A stretch of 64,000 nt of DNA from Cetorhinus maximus (GCF_964194155.1 NC_135879.1:26040001-26104000), one strand, 5' to 3'; counted from the stretch's first letter, positions 30,486-51,790 are shown. The notes: generated by a model from the letters alone, not told the origin. Numbers and translations: made by a program.

Positions 30486-31642
30486 AAAATGTCTGTGTGC
30501 TTTTCTCTGACTTTTGCACTTGCTCTCTGACTTACTGGAGATAGATTTTGGCACTGTGTGATAATGTAAAATGGTCAATAGTGTAAAACTCCCGATTTTA
30601 ATTTCCACTGAAGTCCTAAAATAAAAACCAGTAGCTGTAAAATGGGCTGCCGACTCACTGTCATCCACTTTACACAAGATCAGAATCTACCTTGCACTTT
30701 CTGTCTCAGACAACCTCTTGCTCCACCTCGCTCACTTGCTCTCTGTTTTATTGATGCTCCCTGTTTCTGTTTCTCAAATCTAGGCAATTAAGCCTATAGT
30801 TAGGCTACAGTCGGAGAACCGTGTGCAAATTTGATGTGCAGATTGGCCTTTCTCTGGGCTGGGAACTTTTTTGGCGCTGTGATTATTATTTCACTCTTTC
30901 AATCAACTCCCCACTCTCTATTCCTATTTCTTTCTTTCTATTTGTCTATTCACTATTACATCTCGAACACTCCCTCTCAGTCCCACTCACTCTCTCAGTG
31001 TTTTACTCTTATACTTGCATACATTCTCTCCCTTTTCACGCATTCATCCTGCATCTCACTCTCTCTCAAAAGTGAATTGAAAACGTATTATGAAAATTTA
31101 CCATTTTAATAACAAAGCATATATGGGATTAAATTAGACCAAAAAAAACATTGAGGGAACGCACTCCTGAATTGCTGATATTTGTTCCCAGTGGTCAAAG
31201 GTCTTAGCCAGCTGTATGAATTCTTGCAGTGATACCTTTACTGCCATATATAGAGAAATAACCTTGTAAATACCATGGCAGATTTAATGGGAAAAATTGT
31301 CCTTTTCTATGCTGTAGCATTCTATAATTGTGTGAACAAGTTTGATCTTAATTGGAGCTTGCACTGGTAAATGTTAGCTCTTCAACAGAATATCTCAATT
31401 AAAAGCTACTGATTTTACCAGCCTCATTCCTGACTGTATGCCAGGATGAATTAAAAGTCAATGCATCTTCACCCACCTGTGTGGCACTCTGGCAGAGCAG
31501 ATCTCCCTTTCTGAAAACCCACCCGATTTTTATCCCATTGAAATTTGTAACGGGTGAACATTCTGCTCCCAGCTCATTGCCCAGACAGTGAAGGTGAAAC
31601 TTTGCCTAGTTGCATTTCAATAATTTCTCTTTGTTGTTGCAG

Positions 31643-31820
31643 GTGCCTCTGTTTGTCCCAGCTTTCTTCGCTTTCACCTGTCTCTTCATAGTGGCACTGT
31701 CACTCTATTCTGATCCCATCAACACCGGCATTGGATTTGTCATCACCCTGACTGGTATTCCTGCCTACTATTTGTTTGTGGTTTGGGACAAAAAGCCAAA
31801 GTGCATCCAAAGGCTGATGA
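31643..31820 (+). CDS. SLC7A11: SLC7A11 coding exon (human exon 11 equivalent)
   Basis: ttgttgcag acceptor, gtaagt donor, 178 nt. Encodes [59 protein letters not shown]. Confidence 0.96.
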
Positions 31821-32138: not shown

Positions 32139-35075
32139 TGTAATGAACTTGAAGTACCAGCCAGGTGTCTTACCTGAAATAGATAACTTTATAACAGCGC
32201 TCTTTTAGAAGCTACATGCTTGAACCAGGTCCACGACTAAAAATCTCCACCCCAAGATTACCCACGCTTAGAACAATCGTCAGATCAATCACGTGACCCT
32301 CTAAAGGCAGGAGGAAAGGTTACACCTTCAATCACTAGATTTCCTTCCCCTTTAGTATTTTTTACGTTTCCTATTTACAAAGAATACTTTAATCCACAAC
32401 ATGTACATACATACACAGATCATGTAATTAAAGATTAAGTCTCTGGGTGGTTTTCTAATTCAGTTCGAGCGGTGTAGCTCTACCACTTGAGATTCTTCCA
32501 CTGGATCGACTTGATCAGGAACTGCAGCATCAGAGACATCCTTAGAAAGTGGCAGTTCAGGATTAGGTAATTCAACAGAGACATCAGGTATGTCTATTCT
32601 AGGTCAATCTGTCACCTCAGGGATTAAATGTTTGACATCAATTACAGGTGGAATAGCTGGTTGTTGGACTGTCTCTCCACTCCTTAGATGATCCACATGT
32701 TTTCGAACAATCCGGACTTCCACTTCCACTTGGAATGACAAAGGTCAAGTTTAAGAGGCAATTATACCAGGAACCCAACTAGGACCATTTCCAAAATTCC
32801 GCACAGAAATTGTATCTCCCACAGTAAATCGTTGAGCTTTGTTATGAATATCGTGATTCAATTTCTGAATACTCTGATTTTTCTCTACCTTCCTCTCTAA
32901 GTTTGGAAACACCAGACTTAACCTTGTATGAAGGTGGTTATGATTTCATCAGTAATTCAGACGGTGTTGAACCCATAGTTGCATAAGGAGTCGTATGGTA
33001 ATTGAAAAGAAAACGTGAAATTCGAGTTTCTAAAATTCATTTGGATAACTTCTTCATTCCTGATTTGAAAGTTTGCACTGCTCTTTCAGCTAACCCATTT
33101 AATGGGAGATGATATGGTGCTGTTTTAACATGCTTAAACTCATGAATCTCTGAAATCCTGTACTAGTACAGTACTATTATCCGAAACAATGCCTTTCGGT
33201 AGGCCATGTATACTAAAACATTGGTGCAGCTTTTCTTTAGTTGCACACGATGTTGATGATCTAATTTCATACACATCCATCCACTTAGAATCCACATCGA
33301 TGATCAATAAAAACATGGTAACTAAAAATGGACCTACATAGTCTATATGTAGTCTAGCCCAGGATCGAGCAGGCCACTTCCATGGATGCAGTGGAGCTGA
33401 AACGGGCAACCTTTGTTGTTACTGACACTAGAGACAGTGCTTGACCATGCTTTCAATGTCACTGTCTATACCTGGCCACCAGACATAGCTTCGTGCAAGC
33501 ATCATCATCTTCAATATGCCTGAATGCGCACTGTGAGTCTCTGTCAAGAGTGGTTCTCTTCCTTGTGAAGGGACGACAACTCTTGATCCCCACAACAAGA
33601 TTCCATCTTGATAACTTTACTCTGTTTTACAAGCATGGAATGGTCTTATCTCTTCAGACATTGGTGATTCGACCATCCTTGCAATACCTGGTCTCGGACT
33701 TTTGACAAAATTGGAGCCCAGTTTGTCCAATTCCTTATTTGTTTTGCACAGACCAGTGACAAGTCCAGGAAATTCAACACCAGCACAACTTCTTGAGGCA
33801 CTGTTGCATGTACAATGCTATCTGGTAACAGAAGATGACTGAGTACATTTGCAATATGCATACCAGGACAGTGCATAAAGGTGTACTCATACACCGATAA
33901 AATCAAAGCCCAATGTTGAACTCTTGCTGAGGCTATTGGCAGAATGGTGGTGTCCTTAATAAACCCATTAGTAGTTTATGGTCCGACACTATGGTGAAAT
34001 GTCGTCCATGCAGATACTGACGGAATTTCTTCACTCCAAATATTACTGATAAACCTTCCTTTTCAAGTTATGAGTAACCCTTCTCAGCTGCAGAGAGGGT
34101 TCTGTAGACATAGCCTATTGGCCTTTTGGTTTTGATTTCTGACTTTTCTTCTTTTGTTTGCTGCAGGATTTTGTCTCACCCTTCATTTTGATTTCACAGT
34201 CGGCCAAATTCCTCTCTGGTGAAATCTTAACTTGGTTCAATTCAATAGTTGAGCTACCCATTGTTATGTTAGCCACTCACATCTTAGAAAGTTCCACAAC
34301 ATTTCCTTCTAATGCCTCTTTTGTTTCAATCAGCTGATTCTTCTCTTCTGTCTCCTTCTTGTATCTTTTGGCTTCCCCCTGGAACATTGAGCATTGTTGT
34401 GTCTTTTCTGCCAACTGTTTCTTCAGTTTGTTCAGAGTGGCACTATATTCTTTTTGTTTCTTTTCGTGATTTTCCATCGGAACCAACTCTGACCTGAGGG
34501 ATCCTTGCATCCTAGTGAAGGTCCTTCGATTCTCCTACCCATTCCGAAATACACTGTCATATTCCCTTATCAACTCAGGAATCCCCCCTGTTCTCACTTG
34601 AAATATTTCTGACCAGTTGAGCTTAATTTTTTGGAACCAATCGCAGCCCAGAAGATTAGGCCCTTCACCTGTTACTATGATCACTGGAAGCTGGGCCATC
34701 TGTTCCTGTAGGACACAGGTACTGTGGCGATGCCCTTTACCTGTATCAATTCTCCAGTGTATGTCTGTGGTCGAGCTGTGGTTTGCTCCAGATTCAGTGG
34801 TTGAGCACCTTCATTAAATGTGTGTTCTCTCACCACTGTGATTGAGGCTCCAGTGTCTACCTCCATGAGTAGACGCTTCCCATTCACTTGAAGGGTGACA
34901 GTAATTGGTTCATTTTTTTACTGCTTTGTCATTGTATAGGGAATAGATATCGGTATCGGCAGCCTCTGGTTCTGTTTCATTATTCACTTCAGTCATCTTG
35001 GTCCGCTGTCTGATTTCCTGTCTCGATTTCACTCTGCATTGCTTTATCACATGCCCTTTTTTGTGGCAACTGTAA
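32139..35075 (-). mobile_element. Decayed Gypsy/Ty3 LTR retrotransposon (gag knuckle, protease, RNase H, integrase, PPT, 3' LTR); RT absent
   Basis: Minus strand: SCHKKGHVIKQC (~35070), MEVDTGASITVV protease, RPIGYVYRTLSAAEKGY..LEKEGLSVIFGVKKFRQYLHGRHF RNase H, WARLHIDYVGPF..IDVDSKWMDV integrase. PPT AAAGGGGAAGGAA at ~32341-32354; LTR ~32339-32139 ending TTACA. Confidence 0.9.
34130..34515 (-). other. Non-retroviral coiled-coil coding fragment (UACA/RAI14/ANKRD24-like) embedded in the Gypsy pol
   Basis: ORF 34277-34510 MQGSLRSELVPMENHEKKQKEYSATLNKLKKQLAEKTQQ... resembles the recalled UACA repeat (IQECIKVKYAP..KFKATEKELKDQLSEQTQKY). No RT motifs are present. Confidence 0.55.
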
Positions 35076-35584: not shown

Positions 35585-37135
35585 AAAACATTGTGGAACA
35601 CCTTTCAAAACTTCAGGATGCATCATAATGTCTTACAGCCAATGAGATACTTTTGAAGTGTAGTTACCACTGTAATGTAAGAAAACAGAGCAGCCAATTT
35701 ACATTCACCAAACTCCTACAAATAGTGTTGAGAGAAATAGCCAGTTACCAGTTTTAACAATGTTGGTTGAGAGATAAATGTTAGCCAGGGCATTCTGAGA
35801 ACTCCCTTGCTCTTCTGTAAAAAGTGCTACAGATCCTTTACATTGACAGGAAAGGACAGGCATGGGGCCAGATTTTTGCAGGCCTTTGAAAATGGTGCAT
35901 GTAACCCAGGTTCCCTTTTCCTTTTCCTTTTCCTGCAGCTCCCATTTTTGCTGGCAAGGGGAAGAGGGAAGGGTGTGAATCACAAAGGCAGGAAACCTGA
36001 ACTCAGCAGGGCCATTTGAAAATTGTGCTGAGTTCAAAAATACCCCAATTTTGGCTGTTCCAAAAGCCTTAACCCACAGTGTGGGAGTCACGAATTTATT
36101 GAGGAGACATATACACTCTTGGAGGGTGGACAAGGTCTGCTTAAGTGACATGATTTTAAGTTATTTAAATCCCCAGCCCTTTAAACATGAAAAAACCAAG
36201 TGGCAGCTGTCAGAATAAAAAAAAAGTGCTACTGGAGTGCATTAATGTACAGGCCATCTGGTGTAGCTTAGGAAAAACATGACCACCTGTTCCTACAGTT
36301 TCAATAGATTTCATTGTTGACAGTTCCCACAGACTTTTATTACAGCTGAGCCCATTATGAATGCTTGGCTGAGTTTCAAAAGCTCTAAAAACCATTTACC
36401 TCAACAGGGGGACTGATTTCACATTTTGATTGACAGCTTTAAGAGGCTATTAAAGGATTAACTGTCCTTGATGTGGCTACTGAATAAAAGTTTGTTTTTA
36501 ATAACAGATTGACCACTTGTAAGGATTTAAAATCTTTGAATGGGTATCAAGAATGAGCGATTTTTTTTCTATATCAAGTGTGTATGATATAGAGGTCTCT
36601 TAGATTGTTAGAAGTTTAAATAGCTTTGCATCTCCACATGGCTCCTGAGGTCTGTCCAAAATGGATACTGGTGAGTGGCTGTGGAGGTGGTTGAGGGTAT
36701 TTATGAGGTGGCATGAAGGTGGCATGGGTGTTTGAAGGTGCATGGAGGCAGTATGGGGGCATGGTTGTGTGTTGGGAGGTGATGGTGTGGGTTGAGGGAT
36801 AGAGGCCTAACAGCTTTTTACAAAACTGGGCTGAAGTCTCATAGAAACACTGCAGACCTACTAACCAACCCACCTTGGCACACCACTGCCTCCAAGGCCA
36901 CCTTTGAACTGCCTCCAGGGGCAGCAGACCCGATTCAATCATGCCCCCATACCCCTGCGGCCAAAATCATACATGCAGGGGTCATTTGCATGGAGATGTG
37001 TCTGCCGAGTAGGTAGATTTCCTGACTTGAGCTTCCCTCCTCCACTCTGAAAAATCCAGCCTGCGGTCTCAGATTAATGTCTCATCAAAAAGACAGCATT
37101 TCTGACAGTGCAGCCCTACCTCCATCTTAGATGCA
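35585..37135 (-). mobile_element. Deu-domain SINE (AmnSINE1/SacSINE1-like) split by a MITE at 35866-37061
   Basis: TTACAGCCAATGAGATACTTTTGAAGTGTAG..GGTTGAGAGATAAATG resumes after the insert as TTAATGTCTCATCAAAAAGACAGCATTTCTGACAGTGCAG. Insert ends GGCCAGATTTTT / AAAAATCCAGCC. Confidence 0.65.
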
Positions 37136-37729
37136 GAGTGGGGTTTCAAGCAATAATCTTTAAGCGCAGTTCCGTTGAGTACCACTGAACTTACAAAGGG
37201 GGAGGGAGAAAGAGAAAGGTAAGATAATGATCTATTTTTGTTTCTGGCATCCACTCCATGTGCTTGATGATATCAATGGGTGGTCCAATTAAATTTCATG
37301 AATGGGCCTCATTTAGTTATTGTATGAGCTGGAAGTGTTAATTGCACAGCTTATAGGCAGCTTGCTTTTTGAGAGGGCAGCAAATCTTCTGGGCAACGTC
37401 AGAAGCAGTACTTTAAAAAGGTTTGTCGAAAAGGGAAGGAAGTGGGTTAACAGAGCTGCAGATTGTAGTGCAGATGGAACACCAAGCAGCAAGGAGTTAT
37501 ACTAAAGTGAATCTTTATGGATTAAAAGTCCCCAAAACAATGAAGGAAATATCAATACCAATACCATTTGTAAGTATTTAAAATCTTTGAATGGGTATCA
37601 AGAATGAGAGATTTTTTTCTATGTCAAGCATGTATGAGATAGAGGTCTCTTAGATTGTTAGAAGTTTAAATAGTTTTGCATCATCCACGTGGCTCCTGAG
37701 GTCTGTCAAAAATGGACACTGGTGAGTGC

Positions 37730-40170
37730 TTACTAATTCAAACCTAAGCAAGGCTGACTTCAAAGGAGAATAAACTGAACAGGTTAAACTGGGCTGAGCC
37801 GTTGACAAATAAACCCCACAGAAAAACAATGGAAGGCATTCTAAGAAATATTTAGTACAAAACCAATACATACCCCGAAGGAATAAAGGTTCCACTTGTA
37901 CAGTCAAGCAACCATGGTCTACATAAGTCTTATGACGGATTATAAAGCTAAAGGATATATCTTACATAAATGCCAAGACAAATGGTAATCCAGTGGGCTG
38001 GGAGAATTATAGAGGCTGACAGCGGGACACAAGGAAAATATTAATAGACACAAAAGTGAATGCTGAAAAAAAACTTGCAAGTAATATAAAGACTAATATT
38101 AAAAGATTTTATAAATATATTAAGAGTAGGGGATCTCCAAAGGTGGGTGTGGGCCCAAAAAGGACAAATGGGGTTGATACAGTAATAGATAAGAATATAA
38201 TGGCATATTTATTGAACAAGTATTTTGTACCAATTTTCACAGTCGAGGATCAAGATAAAACAGCAGCAATAGTAGGAAAACTAAAACATAAATTAATGCA
38301 TTCAATATAAGAAACAAAGTGGTAATGGGGTAAACATGAGACTTGGGATAGATAAATCCCCAGGACCTGATGGCTTCTACCCTAGGATATTAGAAGAAGT
38401 AGGTGAGGAAATTGTACCTTAATTATAATCTTTCAAATCTCTCTTGAGTGAGAAACTGGGCCGTTAGACAGCAAAATTGTTACTGTCACTCCATTACCTA
38501 TGAAGAGTGGGAGACTGAGAGCAGGTAAATACAGGCCTTCCATTGTTTTACTGATTTAATGTCAGTTATGGGAAATGACTAAGCTCTCTCATTAGGGATA
38601 GAGTGACTGAGCACTTGAACATAACTGTGATAAAAGCAAAAAACTGCGGATGCTGGAAATCCAAAACAAAAACAAAAATACCTGGAAAATCTCAGCAGGT
38701 CTGGCAGCATCTGCGAAGAGGAACACAGTTAACGTTTCGAGTCCGAATGGCCCTTCAACAGAACTAAGTAAAAATAGAAGAGAGGTGAAATATAAACTGG
38801 TTTAAGGGGGGGGGGGAGGTGGGACAAGTAGAGCTGGATAAAGGGCTAGTGATAGGTGGAGATAACCAAAAGATGTCACAGACAAAAGGACAAAGAGGTG
38901 TTGAAGGTGGTGATATTATCTAAGGAATGTGCTAATTAAGGGTAGAAAGCAAGACGAGAAAGGTACAGATAGCCCTAGGGGGGGTGGGGTGAAGGAATCG
39001 AAAAAGGCTAAAAGGTAGAGATAAAACAATGGATGGAAATACATTTAAAAATAATGGAAATAGGTGGGAAAAGAAAAATCTATATAAATTATTGGGAAAA
39101 AAAGTGGGTTGGGGGGGGGGAATCGGAAAGGGGGTGGGGATGGAGGAGAGAGTTCATGATCTAAAATTGTTGAACTCAATATTCAGTCCGGAAGGCTGTA
39201 AAGTGCCTAGTTGAGAAGATGAGGTGCTGTTCCTCCAGTTTGCGTTGAGCTTCGCTGGAACATTGCAGCAGGCCAAGGACGGACATGTGGGCATGAGAGC
39301 AGGGTGGAGTGTTGAAATGGCAAGCGACAGGGAGGTCTGGGTCATGCTTGCGGACAGACTGAAGGTGTTCTGCAAAGCGGTCACCAGGTCTGCGTTTGTA
39401 CCAAGACAAGTTTGTACTAAGACTGGGTGACCGCTTTGCAGAATACCTTCGGGTGTTCCACTAGGGCTATCTGTACCTTGCTTGTCCTGCTTTCTACCCT
39501 TAATTAGCACATTCCTTAGATAATATCACCACCTTCAACACCTCTTTACCCTTTTGTCTGTGACATCTTTTGGTTATCTCCACCTATCACTTGCCCTTTA
39601 TCCAGCTCTACTTGTCCCACCCCCCCTTAAACCAGCTTATATTTCACCTCTCTTCTATTTTTACTTAGTTCTGTTGAAGGGTCATTCGGACTCGAAACGC
39701 TAAATGTGCTCCTCTCCGCAGTTGCTTTCAGACCTGCTGAGTTTTTCCAGGTATTTTTGTTTTTGACTTGAACATAACTGGACTGATCAGAGAGCCAGCT
39801 TGCCTATGTTAAGGATAACTCACGTTCCACTACTCTGATTGAATTTTTTGAAGAGATCACTCATAATCTAGGTCAGGGTATTTGATAAGCAGACATTTTT
39901 AGTAAGAATGAAGATGCACAGAATTATCTGCAGCCTTTTGATTTTTCTTGGAAATTGGTTGGGAGAGTAGGGACAGAGAGTGGGAATAAAGGGTCAGAAC
40001 TCTGATTGCTGACATGTAACAGAGATCATTTTTGGGGGATCAACATTTTACCATATTTATTAACGGTTTGGATGAAGCAATAGAGAGATGAATATCCAAT
40101 GGTGCAGATCGACCATGATCTGGCTGAATCTGATTGGAGCAGGATTGAGGGGTTGAATGGCACACGCCAA
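37730..40170 (+). mobile_element. Old CR1-type LINE remnant interrupted by a Penelope fold-back
   Basis: EKKLASNIKTNIKRFYKYIKS..VGP, DKSPGPDGFYPRILEEV; heavily degraded. Confidence 0.75.
38628..39765. mobile_element. Fold-back Penelope derivative (inverted GIY-YIG end plus 3' region, then sense 3' region)
   Basis: 38628-39395 is the reverse complement of ~42590-43299 plus an extension; 39458-39765 is a sense copy. Exact 15-bp TSD ACTTGAACATAACTG at 38613-38627 and 39766-39780. Confidence 0.9.
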
Positions 40171-40934: not shown

Positions 40935-43810
40935 ATGTTAACATGTAGGTGCAGCAAGCAATTAGGAAGGCAAATGATAGGTTAGCTTTTGTTACAAAGG
41001 GATTGCAGTGTAAGAGTAAAGAAACCTTGCTACTAATTTACAGGGTGTTGATAAAGCCACACCAAGAGTACTGACCTCAACCTCACAGAGGCTGAGCGTC
41101 AACTCGCAGACACTTCCTCCTACCTCCCCCTGGACCATGACCCCACCACTGAACATCAAGCCATTGTTTCCAGCACTGTTACTGACCTCATCTCCTCTGG
41201 AGATCTTCCTTCCACAGCTTCCAACCTGATAGTCTCCCAACCTCGGACAGCCCGCTTCAACCTCCAACCCAAAATCCACTAACAGGACTGTCCCGGCAGA
41301 CCGATCGCGTCAGCCTGTTCCTGCCCCACGGAACTCATTTCTTGCTATCTTGACTCCATTCTCTCTCCCCTTGTCCAGTCCCTTCCCACCTACATCCATG
41401 ATTCTTCTGACACCCTACATCTTATCAACAATTTCCAGTTCCCTGGACCCAACCGCCTCCTCTTCACCATGGACACCCAATCCCTCTACACCTCCATCCC
41501 CCACCGGGATGGTCTGATGGCTCTCTGCTTCTTCCTCGAACAGGGGCCTGAACAATCCCCACTACTCTCCTCCGTCTGGCTGAACTTGTTCTCACACTGA
41601 ATAATTTCTCCTTAAACTCCTCTCACTTCCTCCAAATAAAAGGTGTGGCTATGGGTACTTGCATGGGCCCCAGCTATGCCTGTTTCTTTATGGGGTACAT
41701 GGAACATTCCTTGTTCCAGTCCTACTCCGGCCCCCTCCCACAACTCTTTCTCCGGTACATCGATGATTACTTCGGTGCTGCTTCATGCTCTTGTCTGGAC
41801 CTGGAAAAATTTATTAATTTTGCTTCCAATTTCCACCCCTCCATCATTTTCACATGGTCCATCTCTGACACATCCCTTCCCTTTCTTGACCTCTCTGTCT
41901 CAATTTCTGGTGATAGACTGTCCACCAATATCCATTGCAAGCTTACCGACTCCCACAGCTACCTCGACTACAGCTCCTCACACCCCGCTTCCTGTAAGGA
42001 CTCCATCCCATTCTCTCAGTTCCTTCGCCTCAGTTGCATCTGTTCTGATGATGCCACTTTCAAAACCAGTTCCTCTGACATGTCTTCCTTCTTCCTTAAC
42101 CGAGGTTTTCCTCCCACGGTGGTTGACAGGGCCCTCAACTGTGTCCGGCCCATCTCCCACGCATTCGCCCTCACACCTTCCTCTCCCTTCCAGAAACATG
42201 ATAGGGTCCCCCTTGTCCTCACTTATCACCCCACCAGCCTCCGCATTCAAAGGATCATCCTCTGCCATTTCCGCCAACTCCAGCATGATGCCACCACCAA
42301 ACACATTTTCCCTTCACCCCCCCGGCGGCATTCCGCAGAGATCATTCCCTCCAGGACATCCTGGTCCACTCCTCCATCACCCCCTACACCTCAACCCCCT
42401 CCCACAGCACCTTCCCATGCAACCGCAGAAGGTGCAACACCTGCCCCTTTACTTCCCCTCTCCTCACCGTCCAAGGGCCCAAACACTCCTTTCAAGTGAA
42501 GCAGCATTTCACTTGCACTTCCCTCAATTTAGTCCACTGCATTCTTTGCTCCCAATGCGGTTTCCTCTACATTGGAGAGACCAAATGCAGACTGGGTGAC
42601 TGCTTTGCAGAACACCTTCGGTCTGTCCGCAAGCATTACCCAGACCTCCCTGTCGCTTGCCATTTCAACACTTCACCCTGCTCTCATGCCCACATGTCTG
42701 TCTTTGGCCTGCTGCATTGTTCCAGTGAAGCTCAACGCAAACTAGAGGAACAGCACCTCATCTTCCGACTAGGCACTTTACAGCCTTCCGGTCTGAATAT
42801 TGAGTTCAACAATTTTAGATCATGAACTCTCTCCTCCATCCCCACCCCCTATCTGATAACCCCCCTTTTTTTACCAATAATTTATATAGATTTTTCTTTT
42901 CCCACCTATTTCCATTATTTTTAAATCTATTTCCATCTATTGTTTTATCTCTACCTTTTAGCCTTTTTCGATTCCTTCACCTCACCCCACCCCCACTAGG
43001 GCTATCTGTACCTTGCTTGTTCTGCTTTCTACCCTTAATTAGCACATTCCTTAGATAATATCACCACCTTCAACACCTCTTTGTCCTTTTGTCTGTGACA
43101 TCTTTTGGTTATCTCCACCTATCACTGGCCCTTTATCCAGCTCTACTTGTCCCACCCCCCCTTAAACCAGCTTATATTTCACCTCTTCTATTTTTACTTA
43201 GTTCTGTTGAAGGGCAATTCGGACTCGAAACGTTAACTATGCTCCTCTCCACAGATGCTGCCAGACCTGCTGAGTTTTTCCAGGTATTTTTGTTTTTTTC
43301 CAAGAGTACTGTGTGTAGTTTTAGTCTCCTTACACAAGAAAGAACATTCTTGCCCTGAAGGTGGTGCAAAGGTTCGCTAGACTAGTTCCTGGGATAAGTG
43401 GATTAACCTACAAGCCGACATTGAGAAGACTAGGCCCATATTCCCTAGGGTTTAGAAGAAAGAGAGGTGATCTAATTGAAACATGGAAAATTCTTGAAGG
43501 GCTTGTCAGGACAGATGCTGAGAAAATGTTTCCCCTGGCTGGGAATTTAGAACACCGGGTCACACTTTCAGAGTAAAGGGTTGATCATTTAGGATTGAGA
43601 GAAGAAGAAACTTCTTCGCCAGAGGGTTGTAAATCTTTGGAATTCTCTACCCCTGAGAGTTGCTGAGTAGATTCAGGACAGAGCTTGATGGATTTTTGGA
43701 AACTGAGGGGATTAAGGGACATATGGTTAGTGCAGGAGGTACATGATCAGTCATAATCTTGTTGTATAATGGAACAGGCTCAAAGGGCCAAATGGCCTAC
43801 ACCACTTCCT
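40935..43810 (+). mobile_element. CR1 LINE 3' portion, host of the Penelope insertion
   Basis: QVQQAIRKAN..LLLIYRVLIKPHQEY continues after the TSD as CV*F*SP..VQRFARLVPG..RGDLIETWKILEG. Confidence 0.8.
41074..43299 (+). mobile_element. Penelope-like retroelement (5'-truncated): RT plus GIY-YIG endonuclease, frameshifted
   Basis: GVAMGTCMGPSYA, FLRYIDD, LPFLDL RT motifs; LVHCILCSQCGFLYIGETKCRLGDCFAEH..GTLQPSGLN GIY-YIG. 12-bp TSD CCAAGAGTACTG at 41062-41073 and 43300-43311. Confidence 0.93.
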
Positions 43811-51292: not shown

Positions 51293-51423
51293 AAATTTTC
51301 ATCTTTTCATGTGGAGGATAGAAAGCAGGAATGCCATTCTTGGATGCACAGCAATGCCACTGCCTGCTATTGTGCTCATTCCCCTCCCATTACTTCACCG
51401 CCTCTCCACTCCCAGCTTGGAGA

Positions 51424-51790
51424 GGTGGTGGCATAGTGGTATTGTTACTGGACTTGTAAATTCAGGGACCCAGGGTAATTCTCTGGGGACCTGGGTTTGA
51501 ATCTCCACCATGTCAGATGGTGGAATTTGAATTCAATAAAAAAGAAAAACTCTGGAATTAGAAGTCTAATGATGATTATGAAACCATTGCAGATTGTTGT
51601 TAAAAACCCATCTGGTTCACTAATGTCCTTTAGGGAAGGAAATCTGCTGCTCTTACCTGGTCTGGCCTACATGTGACTCCAGACCCACAATGTGGTTACC
51701 TCTTAAATGCCCCCTGAAGAAGGCAATTAGGGATGGGCAATAAATGCTGGCCAAGTCAGTGATGCCCACATCCCATGAATGAAAAAAAAA
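51424..51790 (+). mobile_element. HE1-like tRNA-derived SINE
   Basis: Pol III A box TGGCATAGTGG, B box GGTTTGAATC, core AAAAACCCATCTGGTTCACTAATGTCCTTTAGGGAAGGAAATCTGC, and 3' tail identical to the HER1-like LINE. Confidence 0.85.

Follow-up and report, generated by a model that had tools for sequence, protein, structure and literature searches.

The window, a 64,000-nt stretch of the 4.0-Gb Cetorhinus maximus genome (G000:C1:26040001-26104000), carries an exon of a cystine/glutamate transporter gene and, in the intron that follows, a decayed LTR retrotransposon lying antisense to the gene. We assigned the following features:

31641..31817, plus strand: host exon of the cystine/glutamate transporter, SLC7A11-like (E 5.5e-26 to 7p9u_B); the element lies in the following intron
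35068 to 32139, minus strand: span of the element, antisense in the SLC7A11 intron
34921..35068, minus strand: gag 3' remnant (zinc-knuckle region), the 5' end of the element; 5' LTR and upstream gag are absent from the window
34546..34920, minus strand: aspartic protease and protease-RT linker, frameshifted; 81% identity to RT-bearing parent copies
34528..34545, minus strand: left junction zone, where Gypsy linker meets cargo; parent, family B and family C resemble one another here over a short, imperfect stretch
34343..34527, minus strand: UACA piece 1, host giant exon nt 1659-1842, P0004 aa ~948-1013, 78% over 185 nt
34236..34343, minus strand: UACA piece 2, from nt 2295-2402 of the host exon (aa ~1160-1196); a 450-nt deletion separates it from piece 1
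34277..34510, minus strand: 77-codon K/E/Q-rich frame, a decay fragment of a longer protease-cargo frame
34155..34235, minus strand: segment with no identified donor, shared by families A, B and C
34134..34154, minus strand: start (~20 nt) of the third-donor piece of family B, assigned by position in B and too short for significance alone
33650..34129, minus strand: C-terminal part of RNase H plus tether, without the N-terminal RNase H strand; frame differs from that of protease and cargo
32440..33649, minus strand: integrase (H2C2, core, C-terminal tail), interrupted by stops and frameshifts
32340..32359, minus strand: polypurine tract
32139..32339, minus strand: 3' LTR, 201 bp, common to the RT-bearing parent family

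The backbone has the domain order PR-(RT)-RH-IN of a Ty3/Gypsy LTR retrotransposon. The original prediction had described some 390 bp without RT motifs between the protease/linker and RNase H, and this proved accurate: the protease side stops near 34546, and RNase H begins again at 34129. Compared with an intact related polyprotein (P0021), the element aligns to residue 413 and again from residue 752. In P0021 the RVT_1 domain covers residues 478-636 and the RNase H model begins at 724. The window element therefore lacks RT entirely, together with the first RNase H strand, the one that bears a catalytic aspartate. About 0.4 kb (34130-34545) thus stands where ~1.02 kb of pol, comprising all of RT and the start of RNase H, is expected, and copies of the same family that bear RT (L076, L088, L091) have ~1.02 kb at this position. 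The element is therefore RT-less both by comparison with P0021 and by comparison with parent copies that have the same LTR. Of the two components of autonomy, RT and a complete RNase H, it has neither, whereas the parent family, P, has both.

The window copy is truncated at its 5' end (35068), has a single LTR and a polypurine tract, and is broken by many stops and frameshifts. A contig from a second organism (~96% identical) has the same truncated insertion at the same place, and the same search returned a contig covering the SLC7A11-like exon alone. No further pieces of the family, which we call family A, were found elsewhere in the 64-kb window. We conclude that the copy in the window is dead and 5'-truncated, and that it belongs to a multi-copy Gypsy family with a UACA-derived module in the place of RT.

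The window has other repeats as well. A cluster of direct and inverted repeats with 92-96% identity (38662-39770 and 42582-43297) resembles what we take to be Penelope-like elements; a duplicate of ~170 bp, 93-95% identical, occurs at 36512-36677 and 37563-37728, 1.05 kb apart; and ARAGORN placed a tRNA-like structure at 51422-51515, with a four-base anticodon loop and no anticodon called, that is probably SINE-derived.

A UACA-derived module in two Gypsy backbones

When a natural copy of the insert with an open frame was compared with 5.8 billion proteins, shark UACA gave the only two matches among 1,591 candidates (E 6.9e-15 and 9.4e-13), and the closest named UACA relatives of the insert are those of sharks. 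The insert matches the UACA protein in two separate stretches. The host gene on C27 has a giant UACA exon of 2,715 nt, with a 911-aa frame and AG/GT ends, and the window sequence is 78% identical to it along 185 nt and 76% along 68 nt (exon match E 2e-37). Both pieces lie within this one exon, and the 450-nt deletion between them is flanked by a 9-nt repeat in the host sequence. Given the E values of the protein and exon matches, we do not ascribe this similarity to chance: the donor is UACA. The resemblance to UACA that was originally proposed thus became a significant match to a host gene, and the segment did not align to native pol or to an accessory frame of intact copies. Pfam returned only non-specific coiled-coil matches for the insert, and the ESM Atlas gave mixed coiled-coil families at low recognition, which we did not use as evidence.

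Two details of the original prediction needed revision. The 77-codon K/E/Q-rich helix is real (34510-34277), but it is only a decay fragment of an insert frame of ~131 codons. A second K/E-rich block had tentatively been attributed to another segment of the donor; there is indeed a second UACA piece at 34343-34236, but the ~80 nt after it (34155-34235) match none of the three donors described below. Overall, the insert shares with family B ~100 nt that do not derive from UACA. The no-donor segment is one base shorter in families A and C than in B, so that the frame ends in a basic tail and a stop. The insert frame is fully open in 5 of 20 family A copies and continuous with the protease in two (L005 and L009).

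The chimera is multi-copy. Besides the window copy, all 39 matches listed belong to family A, with 86-88% identity over nearly the whole query, and every one of the 19 copies retrieved has Gypsy flanks on both the protease and the RNase H side. The exact junction motif occurs 23 times in the genome, with 4 of these occurrences among the 39 matches listed, an overlap from which we estimate roughly 200-250 copies. Family A has the LTRs of a Ty3/Gypsy element (~202 bp, TG..CA ends) together with a PBS and a polypurine tract. Two LTRs were present in the retrieved stretch for 11 of 14 copies (nine pairs 82-90% identical; two mis-bounded pairs, 69-71%), and with its paired LTRs and many copies the family has evidently undergone secondary retroposition as a non-autonomous element. 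Target-site duplications agree at four or five of the five flanking bases in 7 of 8 clean-ended copies. In the LTR flanks of L100-L115, 5 of 10 clean-ended copies have duplications that agree at the first four bases but not at the fifth; the duplication may be 4 bp plus one base.

The parent family P has its LTR, protease and integrase in common with A and retains RT. It accounts for 3 of 30 retrieved RT loci, at 81-85% identity, and a query with its RT returned P in all 40 matches listed (83-100%). Between A and P there is no net divergence in gag, RNase H-tether or integrase. When 29 further copies were selected on protease alone, RT was present in 22 and the insert in seven; none was a plain RT deletion. 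The closest named proteins to the integrase region of the backbones are 'K02A2.6-like' (50-57% identity). The A, P and C backbones resemble these Ty3/Gypsy elements in their single Gag-Pol frame and PR-RT-RH-IN order; A and C differ from them in lacking RT and in being non-autonomous. K02A2.6-like elements presumably belong to the Mag clade.

In family C the UACA module replaces RT in a second Gypsy backbone. The families outside the window, and the third host donor, lie at the following loci:

L160-L209, e.g. L197:1170-5171: family C
L030-L048 and L120-L159, e.g. L043:2711-7046 (G000:C2:53795211-53799546): family B
G000:C19:43869056-43870783 = L236:4056-5783, minus strand: third-donor exon, a 576-aa coiled-coil exon of a multi-exon host gene

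All 150 of the best matches listed for C carry this arrangement, and 50 were retrieved. The module has the same 450-nt deletion and one-base shift as in A, and its frame ends in a basic tail; in one copy (L205) it lies in frame with Gag-PR in a frame of 382 aa. Relative to A and P, identity is 63-66% in the backbone and 70-79% in the module. The LTRs of family C measure 256 bp (81-91% identity in 12 pairs), and the family has RT-bearing relatives of its own, 81-88% identical. Its flanks are mosaic: the protease is closer to its own parent (71%) than to A (59%), whereas the linker is closer to A (64%) than to its own parent (49%). At least five right junctions and two left junctions occur, some copies retain a P-type remnant of the RNase H junction, and several subfamilies can be told apart by the amount of RNase H and integrase that they retain.

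Three public protein records (P0006, P0007 and P0010) are element-borne cargo frames filed as uncharacterised or hypothetical proteins. We rejected P0006 and P0007 as independent evidence from other species; P0006 matches a family C copy of this genome at 100% identity.

Family B carries pieces of at least three host genes

Querying with the UACA stretch deleted from A gave family B in 146 of the best 150 matches listed. It is an element of ~4 kb with its own LTRs of 250-290 bp (pairs 75-88% identical), PBS-like and polypurine tract motifs, and one clean 5-bp target duplication among five cases checked. In 19 B loci retrieved at 10 kb, no A or P sequence was found beyond the module. Family B contains up to 1.35 kb of contiguous UACA sequence and forms a stepwise deletion series; in one subfamily the 3' UACA piece precedes the 5' piece.

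Family B also holds a TPR domain (PF25481, score above the Pfam cut-off). The host TPR gene lies on C18, where we defined ten exons with AG/GT ends. Among 59 B copies retrieved, 54 have TPR, and of these 48, 22, 51, 47, 45 and 42 span exon junctions 1 to 6, respectively; junction 2 lies inside a common deletion, and junctions 7-9 inside universal ones. B lacks introns that measure up to 7.5 kb. These six junctions without introns are direct evidence of an mRNA template. Family B thus combines host exon sequence inside a discontinuous LTR element with intron loss at six TPR junctions, both of which are used to recognize LTR-mediated retrocopies (PMC5131818). The RNA route is established for TPR alone, as the UACA pieces and the third-donor piece each lie within one exon; those pieces may have been captured at the DNA level.

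The third donor contributed the piece between UACA and TPR, which matches the host exon on C19 at 80% over 287 nt. PDB and Pfam gave no name for this gene, and a homologue search up to 2,000 aa returned nothing; it may be ninein or ninein-like. Upstream of the exon, L248:6188-6568 contains what we take to be a histone H2B-like frame.

A catshark record (P0010) has the same join of UACA, no-donor and third-donor sequence as B, with 69% identity over 86 aa. A protein tree places B as sister to the gene of this genome (82), after the split from Heterodontus, and of the host-specific sites in B, 9 resemble the host, 17 resemble the outgroup and 5 are tied. Together, the tree position and the site counts indicate that the capture is old. 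The catshark join may have arrived by horizontal transfer.

The 5' stretch of B bears some resemblance to gag, but it had no match to 120 polyproteins, a profile probability of 1.9% and no Pfam match. A survey of 50 RT loci yielded no RT-bearing helper for B, and no host-like long exon was picked out among the matches to the coiled-coil stretch at the 5' end of B. Two further stretches of B cargo, L046:3989-4165 and the sequence corresponding to window positions 34155-34235, are without identified donor, and one B copy (L153:3150-3338) has a TPR piece inside its UACA stretch, an extra rearrangement.

A probably second-hand module and its possible function

Several features tie the A insert to B. 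It contains the no-donor segment and the first bases of the third-donor piece of B, and it has a block of substitutions found in part of B and absent from the host. B copies with the 450-nt deletion exist (L237, L238). In a tree of 257 nt of module sequence from 86 copies and the host (43 of 129 copies were left out for missing one segment), A (100) and C (100) are sisters (100) and are nested inside B (93, 91), within which internal nodes are weak (21-50). Thus, the window copy is a dead A element whose module likely came second-hand from B, probably by template switching, and B in turn likely collected pieces of host mRNAs, a combined account that we consider probable. Host sequence has likely been relayed between families of mobile elements.

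The simplest order of events would run from B to a P-type chimera and from there to A and C. Host mRNAs packaged alongside B RNA would have been joined through template switches guided by microhomology, and B copies would then have been whittled down by successive internal losses between short repeats. One B copy, bearing the 450-nt deletion, would have recombined into a P-type genome between the protease linker and RNase H, and this chimera would have given rise to A and, via a switch at the protease end, to C. RT-bearing helpers would have copied all of these in trans, with flank exchange between elements and helpers continuing. An in-frame PR-cargo-RH-IN fusion was considered as the original chimera and rejected: a linker of B length had 0 matches in A context, compared with 23 for the junction motif of A, and C has the same shift.

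The joins themselves offer short similarities. At the right junction 6 of 7 nt are common to B and P, and 9 nt are shared with older relatives; at the left junction the similarity to P is short and imperfect; either may be chance. The join of third donor and TPR has ~9 nt of imperfect microhomology. Repeats at deletion ends measure 9 nt at the 450-nt deletion and 8-13 nt at four others, and three of the eight shared deletions have just 3-4 exact nt in the present host sequence. A search for an RNA record of co-transcription with the LTR element found none; two short contigs came from a run that may be RNA.

Most likely, the cargo is a passenger whose frame is at most weakly maintained, and no function of its own is required. 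An all-coiled-coil cargo could arise because purine-rich, repetitive mRNAs would offer each other many short in-frame repeats. A neutral passenger does not fully explain the three all-coiled-coil donors, or the absence of plain deletions from the 29 protease-picked copies as against seven with cargo.

The same history could instead have involved a selected accessory domain, a Gag-protease-coiled-coil fusion with a basic tail that would aid co-assembly with, or carriage by, helper particles. Judging from the sequences, we regard this as rather unlikely, although it would explain why coiled-coil genes were collected and why the module was kept through many flank exchanges. The seven-to-none count among the 29 copies fits it, as do the module's reading frame, shared with Gag-PR in A (L005, L009) and C (L205), and its retention in C across five or more different right junctions. 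This retention is partly ascertainment, because a recombinant without the module looks like a helper.

Substitution rates bear on the same question. With CpG sites masked and transitions corrected separately, net dN/dS in the coding frame was 0.54, 0.38, 0.58, 1.05, 0.64, 0.49, 1.14, 0.58, 0.39 and 0.70 (the last including the host branch) in 10 comparisons that share data. Eight of the ten thus fall between 0.38 and 0.70, compared with 0.71-3.41 off frame (16 comparisons), and purifying selection on the coiled-coil frame is suggested. However, B1 versus A gave 1.05 and C2 versus C3 gave 1.14, only one interval of the ten lay below 1 (A versus C1 gave 0.38, 0.21-0.75), within-family baselines were 0.63-1.14, and the protease, which may derive from autonomous helpers, was under stronger constraint by the same method (0.20-0.40). 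The A versus P test was uninformative, as there is no net divergence between them. Uncorrected Nei-Gojobori values of 0.21-0.49 were discarded as a sign of purifying selection; within-family values (0.35-0.69) were equally low, a CpG and transition artefact.

The deletions are similarly ambiguous. All eight deletions common to at least three copies are in frame, as a selected domain would predict, but microhomology by itself puts 55-100% of possible deletions in frame, and this null largely predicts the pattern, so we rejected it as proof of selection. The one-base frameshift common to A and C also truncates the B-type frame, and the insert is open about as often (5 of 20 copies) as a control stretch (4 of 18). 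The larger claim, that RT-less LTR elements of sharks built an accessory protein from host UACA, a ninein-like gene and TPR, which spread as a selected Gag-protease fusion exploiting helper particles or host transport, is likewise rather unlikely. If true, it would describe a parasite-of-a-parasite module made of host structural proteins.

Entry of the module into the Gypsy backbones at the DNA level, by gene conversion, break repair or nested insertion followed by deletion and with no RNA co-packaging, seems to us very unlikely. The short junction similarities would suit DNA repair equally well, no junction feature is specific to reverse transcription, and the LTRs of B and of the Gypsy helpers are unrelated. 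Against this, flanks were exchanged repeatedly at homologous pol positions in two backbones, which fits recombination during retrotransposition; the zero net divergence of the A and P backbones despite a long module stem fits recurrent recombination; and spliced TPR places RNA templates in play.

That an A element captured UACA mRNA directly in one template-switch event, as its sense-oriented UACA coding sequence in the place of RT might imply, is more improbable still: ~100 nt of the insert are non-UACA and common with B, the 450-nt deletion is present in B context, A nests in B, and the converse derivation of B from A is contradicted by the longer UACA stretch in B. The insert is thus neither host transcript alone nor closer to the host than to other elements. 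Of the retrovirus-style capture originally proposed, the RNA-level template-switch origin is supported, and direct capture by A itself was wrong, as the insert bears the joins and substitutions of B.

With the relay from B as the preferred reading, these families can be set beside known systems. LTR-mediated retroposition in animals has been explained by a template-switch model (Tan et al. 2016, PMC5131818), and the shark families resemble the cases described there: part of a host mRNA lies inside a discontinuous LTR element, there may be microsimilarity where templates switched, a single chimera combines several parental genes, and secondary retroposition has followed as a non-autonomous element. 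Those cases are young and of few copies, whereas the shark cargo is an old family trait with at least 150 copies per query and has moved into two further LTR backbones, replacing RT. The closest match to family B is maize Bs1, an LTR element with exon pieces of three host genes (PMC5131818, PMC7264820). Bs1 is described with one to five copies and unrelated donor types (PMC5131818), whereas B has at least 150 copies, its three identified donors are all long coiled-coil genes, and it passed its cargo on. Transduced ORFs are said in one account to occur in one or a few copies, with host-gene capture rare (PMC7264820).

Crocodilian ERVs (PMC4299795) are likewise old vertebrate LTR elements with captured host mRNA (KIT-ligand, nectin3); nectin3 replaces a viral gene, indels are in frame and purifying selection was tested. 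They differ in being ERVs rather than Gypsy elements, in having 6-9 copies, in the replacement of env rather than RT, and in near-complete single donors under clear purifying selection, and no relay between families is reported in the parts of that paper considered here. In bdelloid rotifers, accessory ORFs have been swapped between unrelated retroelements, which was ascribed to RT template switches (PMC5408684); they are additional to an intact pol and trace to no specific host gene, whereas the shark cargo replaces RT and traces to named exons. The mechanism is thus already known from Bs1 and LTR-mediated retroposition. A literature survey by title and start of abstract returned no report on families A, B or C, which may be catalogued in Repbase, Dfam or supplements, and it found no precedent for their copy number, multi-donor coiled-coil cargo or relay across three families.

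Gene annotation can be misled by these decayed fragments resembling UACA and TPR, which number in the hundreds. In this genome, captured host coding sequence has become a standing part of three element families, in which joins, deletions and flank exchanges can still be read. The families provide a large natural data set on recombination between non-autonomous LTR elements and their helpers in a vertebrate germ line, and on whether such cargo is ever selected.
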